A stretch of 64,000 nt of DNA from a virus. Lineage: Duplodnaviria; Heunggongvirae; Uroviricota; Caudoviricetes. The stretch is taken from IMG/VR virus record IMGVR_UViG_2740892427_000001. One strand, 5' to 3'. This document shows positions 2,237 through 61,111 of this stretch, piece after piece; the first letter of the stretch is position 1; the number at the start of each line of letters is the position of its first letter. A program made the translations under genes and the position numbers. Below the pieces are notes generated by a model. That model searched no databases. It was not told where the DNA came from and worked only from the letters and a program-made list of their open reading frames with translations.

Positions 2237-2297
2237 GTGTTTTTCTCTTATCGTTTAGTTATTACATTCTTACACAAATTAAGTAAGTATTTACCTA

Positions 2298-3983
2298 TCA
2301 TTTAACGCGTTTGAAAACGTATACGCTGACTGTGATCCCTGTGTCTTCAAACTCGTTGGTAAACGACTTCCCTCTGGCATAAACGTAATTATCCATCGTC
2401 ATCCAGTCCAGTATTGGCGCAGTGCCCGGCAATACTGCTACAAGACGCCCGCCGACTTTCAGATGCCCCAGCGCAGCCAGCGTGTGCTCTCTATGACGAC
2501 CAAGCGAGTACGGCGGGTTCATAACGATTTTGTCGAACTGATAACCTACGTTGTCCTCAGACCACTTTATGAAGTCGCAGCAAATCGTGTTCGTATACCC
2601 TTTTCCGCGCAGGATATCAGCGAAGAGAGGTGCGATTTCTATGCAGGTAACATCTTCCAGATCGGCGTTAATATAGGCCAGAAGATCCCCACGTCCGGCT
2701 TGAGGCTCCAACAACTTCTCACCAGGCTTCAATTCAGTGGCTCTGGCAACGTACTCAGCAATCAAGCGTGGGGTAGGGTAGAACTGGTGTGATTTTGTAT
2801 CCGGTATTAAACCGGTAGCCACAATCGTATTTAGCGTATGGCCGATCTCATACGGGAACTGCCAGTGCTTTTTCTCCTGCACGCCGCCAATGAAGCTCAG
2901 TGTGCGCTCAAGCTCTTCCACCTGCGACTTCTGGAGAGCTGAATCAGAGAAGTACCATACGCCTTTGTCTTTGCTAAATCGCCCGTCACGAAGCGCAGTG
3001 CGAACCGGCACGGAGATCGTCTTCTGGATTAACCCGAACTGCTTTGGTGCCCGTGTTTTTGGCGCAGTTCGGCATGGCGCGGGAATTGCAGCAGGCATAC
3101 TGTAAGCCAGCACCTCATTCAACTTCCAGGCCACGTCAGGATGTATTTCAAAGTGAACGTTGCCGTTCTTGAACATCTTCACGCGCATCAGATTTCCATC
3201 GACGTTCATCCAGTCACCGGTCTGGCAGTCGTTTGCCCGATACGCAGCTGATAGCACCTCAGCAGTGCGGTTGATGGTAATAAATTCTTTGTGCGCGAAG
3301 AAATGAAGCAAGACACGCAGATCGTCGATATAGTCCTCTTTGCGATAGTTCACACTAACGCTGTCCCGCCAGAAATCAGAAATGCAGTCAGCGATTATCA
3401 GACGTTCGCTGAAACCGTTTGTCTTATTTGTCTTGTGCGCAGGACTCAGCGCCTTAAACAAGCCATACACGCGCTCAGAGAGATATTTGTGCCTGTCATT
3501 CAGCAAATTAAGCATCGTGGGTATGACCGTTTCTGCTTTGAACTCCGGTACACCAACGAACTCTTTAACCTTCATCTGGTAGCCGGTTCTGTCAGTTTTG
3601 ATGACTTCCTGTTTGCCCTCTATAAACTGCTCGCGCCACTCATCTCGACGGGAAGCTGGCATGATCAGCAAAACGTTAGTCATGTCCGTGACCTTCCTCC
3701 AGTACTCGGCCCAAATATTCTGTTTCACCCATTCCAGATCGACTTTATCCAACCAACCTCGATTTAAACGCGAGCGATCTTCATCTGGTCGATGGTTTAG
3801 TCTCAGCAGGCGATTAATCATGTTGTGGCGTTCGTCGCCATAAACGAAGTCGTGTACCTGATACATGAAGGCGATCTCTTTCTCGCACTCGGCCACAATT
3901 TCGTGGATGACGTTCATTTCCTGCCGATAGTCGATAGCAGTGTTTGAGTTGGCATCGTCGATGATGGAAAGGGCTGTATTCAT
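2298..3983 (-). CDS. two-domain protein: N-terminal domain of unknown function fused to C-terminal SAM-dependent DNA methyltransferase domain
   Basis: C-terminal third contains LEPQAGRGDLL (SAM-binding-like) and IVMNPPYSLG ((D/N)PPY catalytic motif of N6-adenine/N4-cytosine MTases). Confidence 0.65.
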   Translation of the reverse strand: MNTALSIIDDANSNTAIDYRQEMNVIHEIVAECEKEIAFMYQVHDFVYGDERHNMINRLLRLNHRPDEDRSRLNRGWLDKVDLEWVKQNIWAEYWRKVTDMTNVLLIMPASRRDEWREQFIEGKQEVIKTDRTGYQMKVKEFVGVPEFKAETVIPTMLNLLNDRHKYLSERVYGLFKALSPAHKTNKTNGFSERLIIADCISDFWRDSVSVNYRKEDYIDDLRVLLHFFAHKEFITINRTAEVLSAAYRANDCQTGDWMNVDGNLMRVKMFKNGNVHFEIHPDVAWKLNEVLAYSMPAAIPAPCRTAPKTRAPKQFGLIQKTISVPVRTALRDGRFSKDKGVWYFSDSALQKSQVEELERTLSFIGGVQEKKHWQFPYEIGHTLNTIVATGLIPDTKSHQFYPTPRLIAEYVARATELKPGEKLLEPQAGRGDLLAYINADLEDVTCIEIAPLFADILRGKGYTNTICCDFIKWSEDNVGYQFDKIVMNPPYSLGRHREHTLAALGHLKVGGRLVAVLPGTAPILDWMTMDNYVYARGKSFTNEFEDTGITVSVYVFKRVK

Positions 3984-4086
3984 AATTGCACCATTAAGAA
4001 GTGATTTGTTTAATGGTGCAATTATTTCAAAAATGAAAAGGTACTAAATAGAAATAAACAGGCAATCCTTCAAATAAAGGCATTGG

Positions 4087-4985
4087 CTAATCATACTTGG
4101 AGGTATTTATCACCAGAATTTTGTTTGTATAAATCTTCTTAATATCCCATGTGACATTACCGGAATACCATTGACCGTTATATACTTGGTTTCCAGTTGC
4201 ACCTGTCATTGTTACATAGACAGGTCTGTCGTAATCGGTTCGTCTATAGTTATATACCCCAACCATAGCAGGCATTACCGCACATGGATACCCCATATCT
4301 ATTGTAAATTGAGGGTCAGAAATAGTGATAAGTTTCGCATCAAGGGGCATCATCTCACCGTGATACACCATTGCGCCTGCGCTGTTATACATGGCAATGC
4401 CATAGCCAGAATGTGGTAACACCATATCAGAAAAAGCATAAACTATTATTGTTCCGGGGCTACCATTTACCTGATGCAATCTGAGAGCATTGTATCCGTT
4501 ACTATGCTCATGAATAAACATCATGTTCGCCTTATTACTGCTTTTTATGAAGAAAAAGCATGATTTGTTTGATGGGATTGATGTTTGAAAAACAGAACCT
4601 TTAGATGCAGACATTGTCCCTTTATTAATCAGATTTTGCGGAGTAAATTCTGGACTCATCCACAAACTTCCATCTGATTGAGTAATTGACATCCCGAACA
4701 TAATTATCCCCAGTATGTGTATATGTAAGAACCAAGCCCCGTATATAAATTTGACCAACTAACCGTATTTCCATTAATAGTAACATTTGGAACAGGTAAA
4801 TTGATGTAGTTGTCGTTGTTAAGAGGCATTAATGACCACACGGCATGTAGTGATTTACCCGGTGGCGGATTAGAGTACGTCTTAGAGCCTGATGACGCCG
4901 TAAATCGATCAAGAAAAAAAATAGGTGTAAGGAAGCCAGTAACGTTAATTCCTTTATTGTTGTAAATCCCTGTACCGTATGCCAT
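4087..4985 (-). CDS. Asn/Gly/Tyr-rich hypothetical protein in AT-rich DNA, split into two overlapping frames (4704..4985 and 4087..4758) by an apparent frameshift
   Basis: two same-strand ORFs overlap at 4704-4758; adding one base in the C4 run 4737-4740 joins ...SNLYTG to AWFLHIHILGIIMFGM...; downstream ORF only has a TTG start. Confidence 0.35.
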
Positions 4986-5039
4986 TTTTCACCCTTGTTT
5001 TTATCAACACAATATGGCCGATCATGCGGCCATATCAGA

Positions 5040-59706: not shown

Positions 59707-59878
59707 TCACCACTTTCACTGTGTTTTGAAGTCGTTTTCTGTCTTCCTGTTTTGCCTTCTCTTCCATTGCTCGTCGCGCCGCATTCCCGCCCATCGTGTA
59801 AGCGCCGACAAGAACGAAAAGAACGGCAGCCAGCGTAATCAAAGCAACTTTTAGCTTTGTCATCAGGCTGCCTAGCAT
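59627..59878 (-). CDS. putative inner-membrane spanin-like protein (Rz-like)
   Basis: N-terminal TM segment followed by charged helical region. Confidence 0.45.
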   Translation of the reverse strand: MLGSLMTKLKVALITLAAVLFVLVGAYTMGGNAARRAMEEKAKQEDRKRLQNTVKVVNETSSKIRQKDASAVHRELYDKWVRH

Positions 59879-59879
59879 A

Positions 59880-60599
59880 TTAGACCATCCCTTTCTGGTG
59901 TTTTCTTACCTGCGACCAGGCAATGAATCCTGCCACAACAATAGTGGCAATACCGAAGATGATGCGTACTGTATCCCCGCTAGAGATATGACCTTGTGCT
60001 TTATCCATAGCAGCGGAAACCTGCGGCATAACATCGGCCAGCTGCGCCAGACCAATACCTGCTGTAACAGTTGCGCCTGCGGTTTCTTTAGTTACAGGAA
60101 CAGCCTTCACGGTTTTCACCGGCTTAACAACGCCAGCTCGACGCAGACCTTCCTCAATAACTTCTGCCGCATACCAGGTGTTCAGCGTTTTTAGCGGACC
60201 TCGCCCATTCTCATGGCGAATGATTGCCTCAACCAAAGGTCGAAGGATGTCGTAATCATGCAGATCGATGATCATGTCTGCGGTTACACCAACGGCTTTA
60301 GACACCTCATTAATGTAGGCGTCAGTATTGTTTTCATTCGGCGGTGCCCAACGTTCAATAACTTCACGAATGGTATCGATACTTGAGCCGTCTTTTGCGC
60401 GACGTTTGTCGTGGTAGGTAATTAGAGTCACCGCCAGCGCACGAATCCCCCAAACAGGGTCTTTAAACGTGCAAAAGCGCGGTTCGTCAGGATTCGCAAC
60501 CAGACCTTGCCACGGTGATCCTTTATCAAGATTACCGGGGTTATTATTACGAATGCCTCTCGGAGTCTTCATCCTTGATCTCCTGTTATTGCAGTCCAT
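59880..60599 (-). CDS. hypothetical protein with conserved N-terminal GIRNNNPGNL motif and C-terminal TM segment; possible cell-wall hydrolase by context
   Basis: position within lysis-like cassette only. Confidence 0.35.
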   Translation of the reverse strand: MDCNNRRSRMKTPRGIRNNNPGNLDKGSPWQGLVANPDEPRFCTFKDPVWGIRALAVTLITYHDKRRAKDGSSIDTIREVIERWAPPNENNTDAYINEVSKAVGVTADMIIDLHDYDILRPLVEAIIRHENGRGPLKTLNTWYAAEVIEEGLRRAGVVKPVKTVKAVPVTKETAGATVTAGIGLAQLADVMPQVSAAMDKAQGHISSGDTVRIIFGIATIVVAGFIAWSQVRKHQKGMV

Positions 60600-60921
60600 T
60601 TTTTACGCCATACGCGGCTAACCCCAAAAGCAGTGCAGTAATAATGAACGACGTTATTTTAGAAACAATGCCGCCAAAGAACCCACTGGAGATGGAATCT
60701 AACCGGTTAAGGAGTTTGTCCAGATTGGAGTGTTGAATACTATGTTGCGCCGGGGTCATATCACCAAAGTAGGTTTTCAGCTGATCATTGACCTCCTGGC
60801 CAATTTCTTCACGTAGCTCTTTACCTAATTTACCAACAACCTCCCGAGCAACGATCGCGGCAATACGCTCAACTTGCTCTGTTGTAACGCCCGCCATCTC
60901 GTTCGACATGTTTTCCTCCAT
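60586..60921 (-). CDS. small protein with C-terminal TM helix (possible holin-like lysis protein)
   Basis: single C-terminal TM, context only. Confidence 0.3.
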   Translation of the reverse strand: MEENMSNEMAGVTTEQVERIAAIVAREVVGKLGKELREEIGQEVNDQLKTYFGDMTPAQHSIQHSNLDKLLNRLDSISSGFFGGIVSKITSFIITALLLGLAAYGVKNGLQ

Positions 60922-61111
60922 GAAAAGTCAAATCGGGATGGCGGATTTATATCACATTTCACCCTTTTGTTATAGGTGTGTACTTACCTATCTATGTATA
61001 TACCGTTTAACGGCTGTTCAAATTCGTATCTAGTAACTCACTAATATATCCCTATGATTGCGGCTGTGAGATCGCATTTTAAACCTCACAGCCATATAAA
61101 TAATGTCTAAA

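Follow-up and report, generated by a model that had tools for sequence, protein, structure and literature searches.

A palindrome of 20–24 bp recurs about 18 times, nearly always between genes, in the 64 000 nt stretch of IMG/VR record IMGVR_UViG_2740892427_000001 analysed here (the window) and about 28 times in the whole of its close relative, Escherichia phage Cyrano. We think there is an even chance that this palindrome serves the SSU5-like phage-plasmids as the operator for genome-wide repression and is bound by an XRE-family repressor, the candidate being a helix-turn-helix (HTH) protein encoded at 45357..45743 in the window. The window shares 98.7 % identity with Cyrano (OV696614) over 20 kb and corresponds to CYRAN_21 to CYRAN_93 on the opposite strand, hence almost all of its genes lie on the minus strand. 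Cyrano is pLF82 of Escherichia coli LF82, an SSU5-like phage-plasmid (PMC9928086), and the element in the window, judged by its sequence, is another.

The palindrome had been noticed before, in a reading made from the letters of the window alone (the sequence-only reading), as two arms separated by 2 nt and present at 17 sites. However, that consensus, ATAGGTAAGT-nn-ACTTACCTAT, finds no match even when 3 mismatches are allowed, and the true motif is an ungapped palindrome, ATARGTAAGT|ACTTACYTAT, which is often longer, as tGATAGGTAAGTACTTACCTATCa. The longer form is the consensus of a position weight matrix (PWM) that was iterated and symmetrised and from which all site scores, in bits, are taken. 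In the half-site, nATARGTAAGT, the PWM shows T4, A5, T8 and A9 to be almost invariant. With up to 3 mismatches, ATAGGTAAGTACTTACCTAT matches the window seven times and was never matched in 100 shuffles; the 14 bp core RGTAAGYRCTTACY at up to 2 mismatches matches 18 times, against 1.65 expected and a shuffle maximum of 5. The PWM recovers the sites and shows them to be in excess between genes: 19 of 20 PWM matches in the window (82 % coding) and 26 of 28 in the whole of Cyrano are intergenic. The motif carries stop codons in two of the three frames on both strands and, after correcting for these, the intergenic bias has a binomial P of ~1e-11. That the motif exists is certain.

Fourteen of the 17 sites in the earlier list are full sites in their proper place, scoring 21–31 bits. 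Of the remainder, the site given as 51941-51959 is real but was out of register by about 16 nt, its true position being 51925-51948. That at 42646-42670 is a site, but a degenerate one, with a perfect right half and no left outer arm, and that at 45309-45328 is a core-only variant with a perfect core at 45312-45325. Three sites were missing from the list, namely 14432-14455 (weak), 43978-44001 (intragenic) and 28843-28856 (a weak core).

The palindrome has no direction of its own. In a pool of 47 sites from Cyrano and SSU5, mismatches of the G:U type are as frequent in sense as in antisense (52 and 52), and the variable R/Y position forms Watson–Crick pairs in 27 of the 47, where 50 % is expected by chance. 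Thus the halves vary independently and without strand bias, which points to a symmetric, dimeric DNA-binding protein rather than to an RNA or DNA hairpin or a directional promoter. Information content is about zero immediately beyond the 24-mer. The −10-like TAnnnT at the motif end is equally common on both strands (sense vs antisense, 13 vs 11, 13 vs 15 and 15 vs 13), again as expected of an element without direction.

The same consensus is present at orthologous gaps in Cyrano (~28 sites), SSU5 (26 sites) and Klebsiella pJN2-26 (25 sites), and orthologous sites are 84–87 % identical over the 20-mer while their flanks are 61–72 % identical. A more distant Klebsiella lineage, pMB7868_2, also keeps the motif. 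Acinetobacter relatives (TerL 59 % identical) have 31 copies of ATTATAGTAAGCGCTTACTAATAA, the core 8-mer of which is the most frequent in that plasmid, and an Aeromonas relative (TerL 53 % identical, 55 % G+C) has, within the 100 kb analysed, 29 copies of (a)TCAGTAAGyrTTTACTGA(t). The core common to all lineages is GTAAR-N2-YTTAC, and the outer arm is lineage-specific (ATAR, ATTA or ATCA). In IMG/VR the exact 20-mer has 39 matches, all in SSU5-like contigs. In a scan of one genome per species (298 Gb) it appeared as scattered singletons at about chance level, together with four SSU5-like contigs, and was absent from the E. coli, Salmonella and Klebsiella chromosomes. Hence, the motif belongs to the element family and is not that of a host regulon.

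The sites in the window, with their surroundings and, where found, the positions of their orthologues, are listed below. Promoters are predicted σ70-like elements.

2277..2300, 27.2 bits, TGATAGGTAAATACTTACTTAATT when read on the minus strand; runs over the DUF4942 stop, with the Ead-like start 40 nt on and TGTGTAAGAAT (extended −10-like) after the site; SSU5 84176 and pJN2-26 20933.
7246..7269, 23.7 bits; overlaps the RNase H stop, with the next start 127 nt on; SSU5 79902 and pJN2-26 16840.
8419..8442, 21.4 bits; on the stop of the CYRAN_80 homologue, 158 nt before the CYRAN_81 homologue; SSU5 78707.
9459..9482, 28.2 bits; 9 nt upstream of the start of a Dam-like methyltransferase gene; the transcription start of a predicted minus-strand promoter (9507..9479, TTGCCA-17-AAAAAT) falls inside the site; SSU5 77649 and pJN2-26 14619.
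14295..14318, 24.7 bits; 13 nt upstream of the ThyX start and downstream of an intrinsic terminator (14384..14366).
14432..14455, weak, 14.5 bits; overlaps the stop of a MazG-like gene; weak orthologues at Cyrano 72456 and SSU5 72355.
19007..19030, 30.9 bits; 6 nt past the RuvC stop and 43 nt before NrdA, within a predicted promoter (TTGATA-17-TAACAT), with a terminator-like hairpin (19002..18981) directly after it; SSU5 67773 and pJN2-26 5033.
23691..23714, 24.2 bits; 111 nt upstream of the SbcD-like start and followed by TGcCATAAT (extended −10-like); SSU5 63078 and pJN2-26 341.
28511..28534, 24.8 bits; abuts the start codon of the CYRAN_60 homologue and is overlapped by a predicted promoter (TTTATA-16-TATCAT).
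30464..30487, 27.8 bits; between a terminator (30521..30501) and a small membrane-protein gene, inside a predicted promoter (TTGAAA-17-TATTAT, 10/12 matches).
35250..35273, 27.9 bits; 11 nt past the UvsY stop, with the gp32-like SSB gene 82 nt on, inside a predicted promoter (TAGATA-17-TATCAT).
42647..42670, degenerate, 4.3 bits, core with 2 mismatches; between the CobT-like and CobS-like genes; better-conserved orthologues at SSU5 45122 and pJN2-26 93366.
43978..44001, 20.4 bits; inside the CobT-like gene and the sole coding-region site in the window; position kept at Cyrano 43930, SSU5 43659 and pJN2-26 91930 (strong, 25.5 bits).
45307..45330, a variant on the promoter of the XRE gene; inner core GGTAAGCACTTACC perfect (45312-45325), outer arms diverged; from the end of the −10 it extends over the predicted transcription start.
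49280..49303, 31.3 bits, the top score; 8 nt past the stop of the CYRAN_39 homologue.
51925..51948, 19.2 bits; abuts the annotated start of the CYRAN_35 homologue.
52802..52825, 24.1 bits; 12 nt past the primase stop and 39 nt before the CYRAN_34 homologue, followed by TGTAAGAAT (extended −10-like); RNA sequencing (RNA-seq) signal rises by 2–3 log2 at this junction in every condition.
56236..56259, 27.1 bits; 10 nt upstream of the CYRAN_31 homologue, the first gene of the helicase/primase cluster, with a Shine–Dalgarno sequence directly after it.
60970..60993, 26.2 bits; between the tail-fibre and holin genes, with the holin start 60 nt on; TGaTATAAA (extended −10) lies 16–24 nt downstream, and this −10 is kept in Cyrano, SSU5 and pJN2-26.

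The intragenic site, in the CobT-like gene, may be an internal promoter or a roadblock. Two further PWM matches, at 8796-8819 and 56363-56386, were dismissed as AT-rich look-alikes, the first being the tip of a long terminator hairpin, and a weak PWM match at Cyrano 31177 was dropped as the tip of another. The long hairpin is present in two copies (window 8760-8860 and Cyrano 31150-31220) with a common stem, GCCTGCTTCTGTAT...ATACAGAAGCAGGC, and in both the AT-rich tip resembles a degenerate palindrome, as if a site had been built into the terminator.

Most sites had been placed 20–100 bp upstream of gene starts, which is too narrow, as the gap to the start codon spans −1 to 158 nt. About half of the sites overlap the previous stop codon or sit no more than 12 nt from it. 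In the whole of Cyrano they mark structural and lysis genes as well, and the motif avoids the promoters of plasmid-state genes, namely repA, parA, the toxin–antitoxin pairs and the accessory region CYRAN_92-118. Promoters were scanned for with the σ70 consensus of the tool used and our own copy of that consensus. Sites are overlapped by σ70-like promoters more often in the sense than in the antisense direction (9 vs 3 in Cyrano, 10 vs 3 in SSU5, 8 vs 2 in pJN2-26 and 14 vs 8 in the Acinetobacter relative), and at least ten sites in the window overlap or abut sense-strand elements. The overlap takes three registers. In one, the site fills the spacer, with the −35 at positions −3..2 and the −10 at 20-25 (NrdA, gp32 and the homologues of CYRAN_56 and CYRAN_60); in another, it covers the transcription start (Dam and the XRE repressor gene); and in the third, the −35 region that it covers belongs to an extended −10 promoter (Ead, CYRAN_34 and SbcD), with TGnAAGAAT or TGcCATAAT 7 nt downstream. 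No −10 or −35 at a fixed position beside the motif was found. Where a site holds or abuts the Shine–Dalgarno sequence of the next gene (portal, CYRAN_31, ThyX) or its start codon (CYRAN_60), it cannot be a promoter for that gene. Five conserved Cyrano sites directly precede terminator-type hairpins (MCP/Ig-like, tailM/tailL, tailJ/fibre, Tc1/tail and RuvC/NrdA). The suggestion of the sequence-only reading that the palindrome might be a phage-specific promoter element is weakened by each of these features, that is, by the absence of a fixed external −10 or −35, by the lack of strand bias in TAnnnT, and by sites that hold a downstream ribosome-binding site or directly precede terminators. Matches to the σ70 consensus were fewer than in shuffled sequence in each of three 20 kb blocks (window 1-60000; 16 vs 29.9, 23 vs 28.2 and 14 vs 30.7), a deficit that suggests selection against spurious promoters.

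The candidate repressor, encoded on the plus strand at 45357..45743, is 128 aa long and 100 % identical to CYRAN_45, which is annotated as ‘putative repressor’ and is the master-repressor reference for Cyrano in Table 1 of PMC9928086. It matches Pfam HTH_19 with E = 7.8e-4, which is below the cut-off of that family, and PHROG 8 with E = 1.3e-11. An AlphaFold2 model (pLDDT 76) is predicted to be a five-helix XRE HTH, though its Foldseek matches (restriction–modification controllers, phage repressors and HigA) are weak (E ≥ 6e-3) and generic. Its predicted promoter (plus strand, 45283..45310, TTTACA-16-TAATAT) is conserved in pJN2-26, and the sole perfect motif core in the window lies on it; as had been noted before, the site meets the −10. 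When this region is compared with pJN2-26, the block with the promoter and variant site is conserved and the remaining divergent region is not. In two Klebsiella lineages an equivalent site lies 28–30 nt upstream of the XRE homologue, in Aeromonas the distance is 57 nt, and Acinetobacter has partial sites only. The gene is a core gene of the family, with homologues in 995 plasmid records compared with 1037 for TerL and matching counts by genus, and the search for homologues returned SSU5-like contigs only. Identity among the homologues falls to 66, 56, 49 and 38 % with the recognition helix kept (KNANNLSLIKSG, KNPNILSLIKKG, ENANNISLIKSG and NQNMVSFIVRG).

Expression data for the LF82 lysogen (PMC9928086, S1 Table) agree with a silenced regulon. 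Site-linked genes are at the floor in the lysogen (median log2 3.0), and minus-strand maintenance genes with motif-free promoters are on (median log2 6.8). Of the regulators tested, only CYRAN_45 shows expression in the lysogen (96 normalised counts, background 9.8); those near or below background are the ParB-like gene (5), the winged HTH (wHTH) gene CYRAN_123 (7.8) and CYRAN_37 (6.4). In macrophages the plasmid is partly derepressed, the largest steps being behind degenerate sites (CYRAN_12, 56 and 60), with CYRAN_60-62, downstream of the site at 28511..28534, among the most derepressed genes, and the genes at best-consensus sites (NrdA, gp32, Dam, SbcD and CYRAN_31) remain off. This order of derepression is the one expected of operators and the opposite of that expected of activator sites, but the trend is weak (site score vs induction, Spearman rho −0.36, p = 0.08), and correlations over the five conditions lack power, since the plasmid genes mostly go up in concert. 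Where expression falls at a site, as it does at several, intrinsic terminators in the same gaps account for it.

A dimeric regulator of a genome-wide regulon of the P1 type, which the sequence-only reading had proposed, is thus the best-supported reading, on the grounds of symmetry, conservation at orthologous positions, promoter overlap and silence in the lysogen. The gene at 45357..45743, one of two HTH genes it had named, also remains a plausible source of the binder in view of its XRE fold, its expression in the lysogen, the kept recognition helix and the site on its own promoter. The other, at 36256..36819, is discarded; it encodes HicB, a toxin–antitoxin component, and has a strong promoter of its own without the motif. 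CYRAN_114, annotated as ‘transcriptional regulator’, was also rejected as binder, as it is FljA/Hfq-like and so RNA-binding.

From these observations we infer binding, the identity of the binder and the direction of regulation, as follows. A dimer of the XRE repressor would bind the 20–24 bp site, the half-sites nATARGTAAGT being centred about 10 bp apart and so presented on the same face of the helix. Most sites would overlap the region occupied by RNA polymerase at many small σ70 lytic promoters controlling genes for nucleotide metabolism, replication, recombination and lysis and, outside the window, virion structure, and their occupation would silence the lytic transcription units during replication as a plasmid. 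Sites away from promoters (at stop codons, at ribosome-binding sites, before terminators and in the CobT-like gene) may be additional binding or roadblock sites like the stoperators of phage L5. The variant site on the repressor’s own promoter, with its perfect core and weak arms, would give negative autoregulation. Any change in specificity would need more than 25 sites to be altered together, which would leave the motif nearly frozen while the rest of the repressor diverges.

SSU5, described as virulent in PMC5427195, lacks the XRE gene and keeps all of the sites. However, SSU5 and its closest plasmid relatives, among them the Enterobacter plasmid pD-CRECL423, are 99.3 % identical up to a junction (SSU5 42400-42900) at which SSU5 is empty and the relatives carry ~6.7 kb (pD-CRECL423 8900-15700) that includes phoH, grx, a YafO toxin gene, an integrase gene and the XRE repressor gene. 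Given the 99.3 % identity of the flank and the presence of the gene in relatives, SSU5 is a recent repressor-deletion derivative, and the deletion probably explains its virulent behaviour, which speaks for the XRE protein as repressor. The retention of sites without a repressor was therefore set aside as counter-evidence, since with so recent a deletion intact sites are uninformative either way.

Several observations weigh against the XRE repressor as reader of the palindrome. It is the most divergent of the shared regulators (56–66 % identity where TerL is 95–96 %), yet the motif is unchanged among the enteric lineages, and in L5-type phages repressor and stoperator co-vary (PMC6550527). The divergent early promoter of the CYRAN_46 homologue has only half-sites and no strong consensus site, and CYRAN_46 is the most strongly derepressed gene, whereas the best operators of a classical immunity repressor would be expected there. 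Occlusion of a promoter or a roadblock would have no obvious use at five conserved Cyrano sites, which have a stop codon on one side and a terminator on the other. To these must be added the weak correlation between score and induction, found in data where the majority of plasmid genes go up jointly, and the resemblance of the motif centre, AAGT/ACTT, to the Lpa box of P1, AAGTnACTT, considered below. The CYRAN_46 homologue itself (window 44893-45105, minus strand) is 70 aa long and divergent from the XRE gene. Its expression goes from log2 4.3 to 10.8 in macrophages and follows that of CYRAN_60-62 across conditions, and it could have a Cro-like or antirepressor function.

How the palindrome compares with known dispersed-site systems also bears on its interpretation. 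XRE-family dimers bind palindromes with half-sites one helical turn apart, and the predicted fold of the candidate binder is like that of such dimers (C.AhdI, C.Esp1396I and the lambda, 434 and Salmonella-phage repressors), though those systems have one to few operators and about 25–30 are found here. In RK2 (IncP), KorB binds a dozen or more dispersed palindromes (OB) at variable distances from promoters in a global silencing regulon. KorB is a ParB-family CTPase with an HTH; in contrast, the SSU5-like ParB_N protein shows no HTH and is at the expression floor in the lysogen. The C1 operators of P1 overlap σ70 promoters in various registers, including at the repressor’s own gene (annotated P1 record and PMC10695390). 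As with C1, there are many dispersed operators here, and a single repressor is thought to silence the scattered lytic units of a phage-plasmid. However, P1 operators are asymmetric 17-mers of the ATTGCTCTAATAAATTT type (Oref, ATTGCTCTAATTGATTG; Ossb, ATTGCTCTAATTAATTT) rather than symmetric 20–24-mers, C1 is 283 aa rather than 128 aa long, and tblastn with C1 found no match at E ≤ 1 in the window, Cyrano, SSU5 or pJN2-26. The stoperators of L5 are 13–14 bp long, without dyad symmetry, bound by a monomer and oriented with transcription (PMC6550527). As in L5 and Bxb1, there are 20–30 sites, mostly in short intergenic gaps of co-directional arrays, with many off promoters and a few true operators, including sites at the repressor locus. 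The sites described here differ in being symmetric and free of orientation information and, unlike in Cluster A phages, where motif and repressor co-vary, the motif is invariant among the enteric lineages. By analogy, the C1 operators and the L5 stoperators would be the closest systems in function, though at the sequence level the palindrome belongs with neither, because it is symmetric and not asymmetric and there is no homologous repressor.

Rather unlikely, though the most serious of the other explanations, is that the palindrome is an activator site for lytic units, a promoter element that replaces the −35 as the Lpa box does in P1. The late promoters of P1 have a 9 bp inverted repeat, AAGTnACTT, in the −22 region, followed after 4 nt by the −10 (PMC10695390 and the annotated P1 record), and the centre of our motif is AAGTACTT, 8 bp without a central base; in both, many copies of a palindrome lie just upstream of −10-like hexamers. 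Here the right end of the motif makes TATCAT-like −10 hexamers, and the predicted registers centre the palindrome near −19.5 or −22.5, the commonest near −20 to −22. Yet the whole palindrome is 20–24 bp and not 9 bp, the distance from box to −10 is 2 bp off that of P1, and the P1 −10 is strictly spaced and directional while the palindrome has neither a directional signature (TAnnnT is equal on both strands) nor a −10 conserved at a fixed distance. The sites also precede replication and nucleotide-metabolism genes and not only late genes. As candidates for the activator there are two small winged-helix proteins, the homologue of CYRAN_123 (outside the window) and that of CYRAN_37 (window 49748..49963, minus strand). 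CYRAN_123 (Cyrano 108051-108317) resembles the LexA DNA-binding domain without the peptidase domain and is directly upstream of terS, just as lpa is upstream of pacA in P1, and CYRAN_123 is conserved as far out as Acinetobacter; a BLAST search with Lpa gave nothing significant, the best match (E = 0.17) being to an unrelated ORF (open reading frame). Silence of site-linked genes in the lysogen, where the wHTH candidates are unexpressed, is as an activator would have it, as are the upward expression steps at the CYRAN_12, 34, 56 and 60 sites; through the variant site at its transcription start, the repressor gene would then be turned off by the activator, as by Cro. However, induction is least at best-consensus sites, and CYRAN_123 does not track the induced genes, being higher in B6 than in MB1 with CYRAN_60 lower. 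At least eight Cyrano sites end less than 20 nt from the next start codon, some at a Shine–Dalgarno sequence, so that the mRNA must start upstream, and five are immediately followed by terminators. That SSU5 retains every site without the repressor would also suit an activator, but the recent deletion makes this uninformative. A reading in which the same sites serve both the XRE repressor (in the plasmid state, including at the pre-terminator stop sites) and a LexA-like or Lpa-like winged-helix factor (in lytic growth), with competition at shared sites setting the lysis–lysogeny state, seems to us unlikely.

The remaining explanations are less probable still. Loading or centromere sites for a ParB-family protein (the CYRAN_119 homologue, outside the window), serving partition and/or long-range silencing as KorB does or as the dispersed centromere repeats of phage-plasmid N15 do, are very unlikely. 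The sites do resemble OB in being palindromic, dispersed and variably spaced from promoters, proteins with a ParB_N domain and a GxxR-type motif (GGEHRWRAA) are encoded in the family, and a site directly upstream of the parB-like gene is kept from E. coli to Acinetobacter, but so many genes have upstream sites that this one is not special. Moreover, Pfam shows the N-terminal domain only, the gene is at the detection floor (log2 2.32) in the lysogen, when partition or silencing would be needed, and ParA comes from another locus, which has a small partner gene of its own and a motif-free promoter. We consider it highly improbable that the palindrome acts as an RNA hairpin in polycistronic transcripts, whether for processing, for stability or as a translational operator. 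Because they sit inside co-directional arrays, the sites are bound to be transcribed in many cases, the ribosome-binding site or start codon of the following gene falls within some, and several adjoin other conserved hairpins; against this, compensatory variation is absent, with R/Y pairs at chance and G:U-compatible mismatches balanced between the strands, and what is conserved is the sequence and not the pairing of a weak, AT-rich stem. Recruitment of a host transcription factor is just as improbable. The core is kept across hosts of three orders, but the outer arms vary by lineage, as expected from co-evolution with an element-encoded protein, and the genome scan and IMG/VR place the 20-mer, beyond chance singletons, in SSU5-like contigs. 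A likeness to the NarL-type heptamer (TACYYMT / AKRRGTA) is coincidental, as the arrangement is opposite and is not kept in Acinetobacter. A σ70-family sigma factor is encoded between the CobS-like (MoxR) gene and dnaE in Acinetobacter members of the family (pCMCVTAb1-Ab59 30780-31445). A tblastn search gave nothing equivalent in the enteric elements, either there or at another position, and a factor restricted to Acinetobacter cannot account for a motif shared with them.

Other features of the element were noted in passing. After the top-scoring site at 49280-49303 come TGTATAAGAT (extended −10-like), an ORF-free stretch of ~760 nt (window 48520-49280, minus strand) and, beyond it, a cluster of tRNA genes (47866-48519; Asn, Tyr and Thr, with Ser further along). 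The non-coding stretch could host an RNA gene, and an Rfam search of 48520-49280 returned nothing at the gathering threshold. CYRAN_98 (Cyrano 89311-89700, outside the window) has an S24 (LexA/UmuD-like) peptidase domain without a DNA-binding domain and shows strong induction in macrophages, from log2 7.2 to 12.2. The element in the window lacks CYRAN_43 (window 46842-47051 vs Cyrano 40083-41090), whose expression in the lysogen (7084 counts) far exceeds that of any other Cyrano locus, and a plus-strand ORF of 225 aa (56598..57275) replaces CYRAN_30 (window 56260-57313 vs Cyrano 30331-31134). At 36971-37389 on the plus strand, adjoining hicAB, a full-length cspA thermoregulator (Rfam RF01766, 187.6 bits) and a cold-shock gene form a host-like cold-shock cassette on a phage-plasmid.

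SSU5-like phage-plasmids are common in clinical Enterobacterales, the family carries resistance genes, and it includes pMT1 of Yersinia pestis and pHCM2 of Salmonella Typhi; our searches gave ~1000 plasmid records, including plasmids of Y. pestis that, at ~101 kb, match pMT1 in size. Searches of the literature for the sequence, or for SSU5, pHCM2 or pMT1 together with operators or palindromes, yielded no relevant description. The palindromes would thus constitute a multi-operator global regulon of a temperate phage-plasmid that has no prior description in the literature searched, with a mechanism that we infer. Control of lysogeny in SSU5-like elements was likewise not described there, and a regulon and a candidate repressor can now be named. 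The motif is a compact diagnostic signature of the family and marks the boundaries of transcription units for annotation. It also makes approachable the silencing of ~100 kb of lytic genes in the plasmid state, the virulence of SSU5, in which the repressor has been lost but the operators kept, and the mutual immunity that members from E. coli, Salmonella and Klebsiella may have on account of their identical operators.

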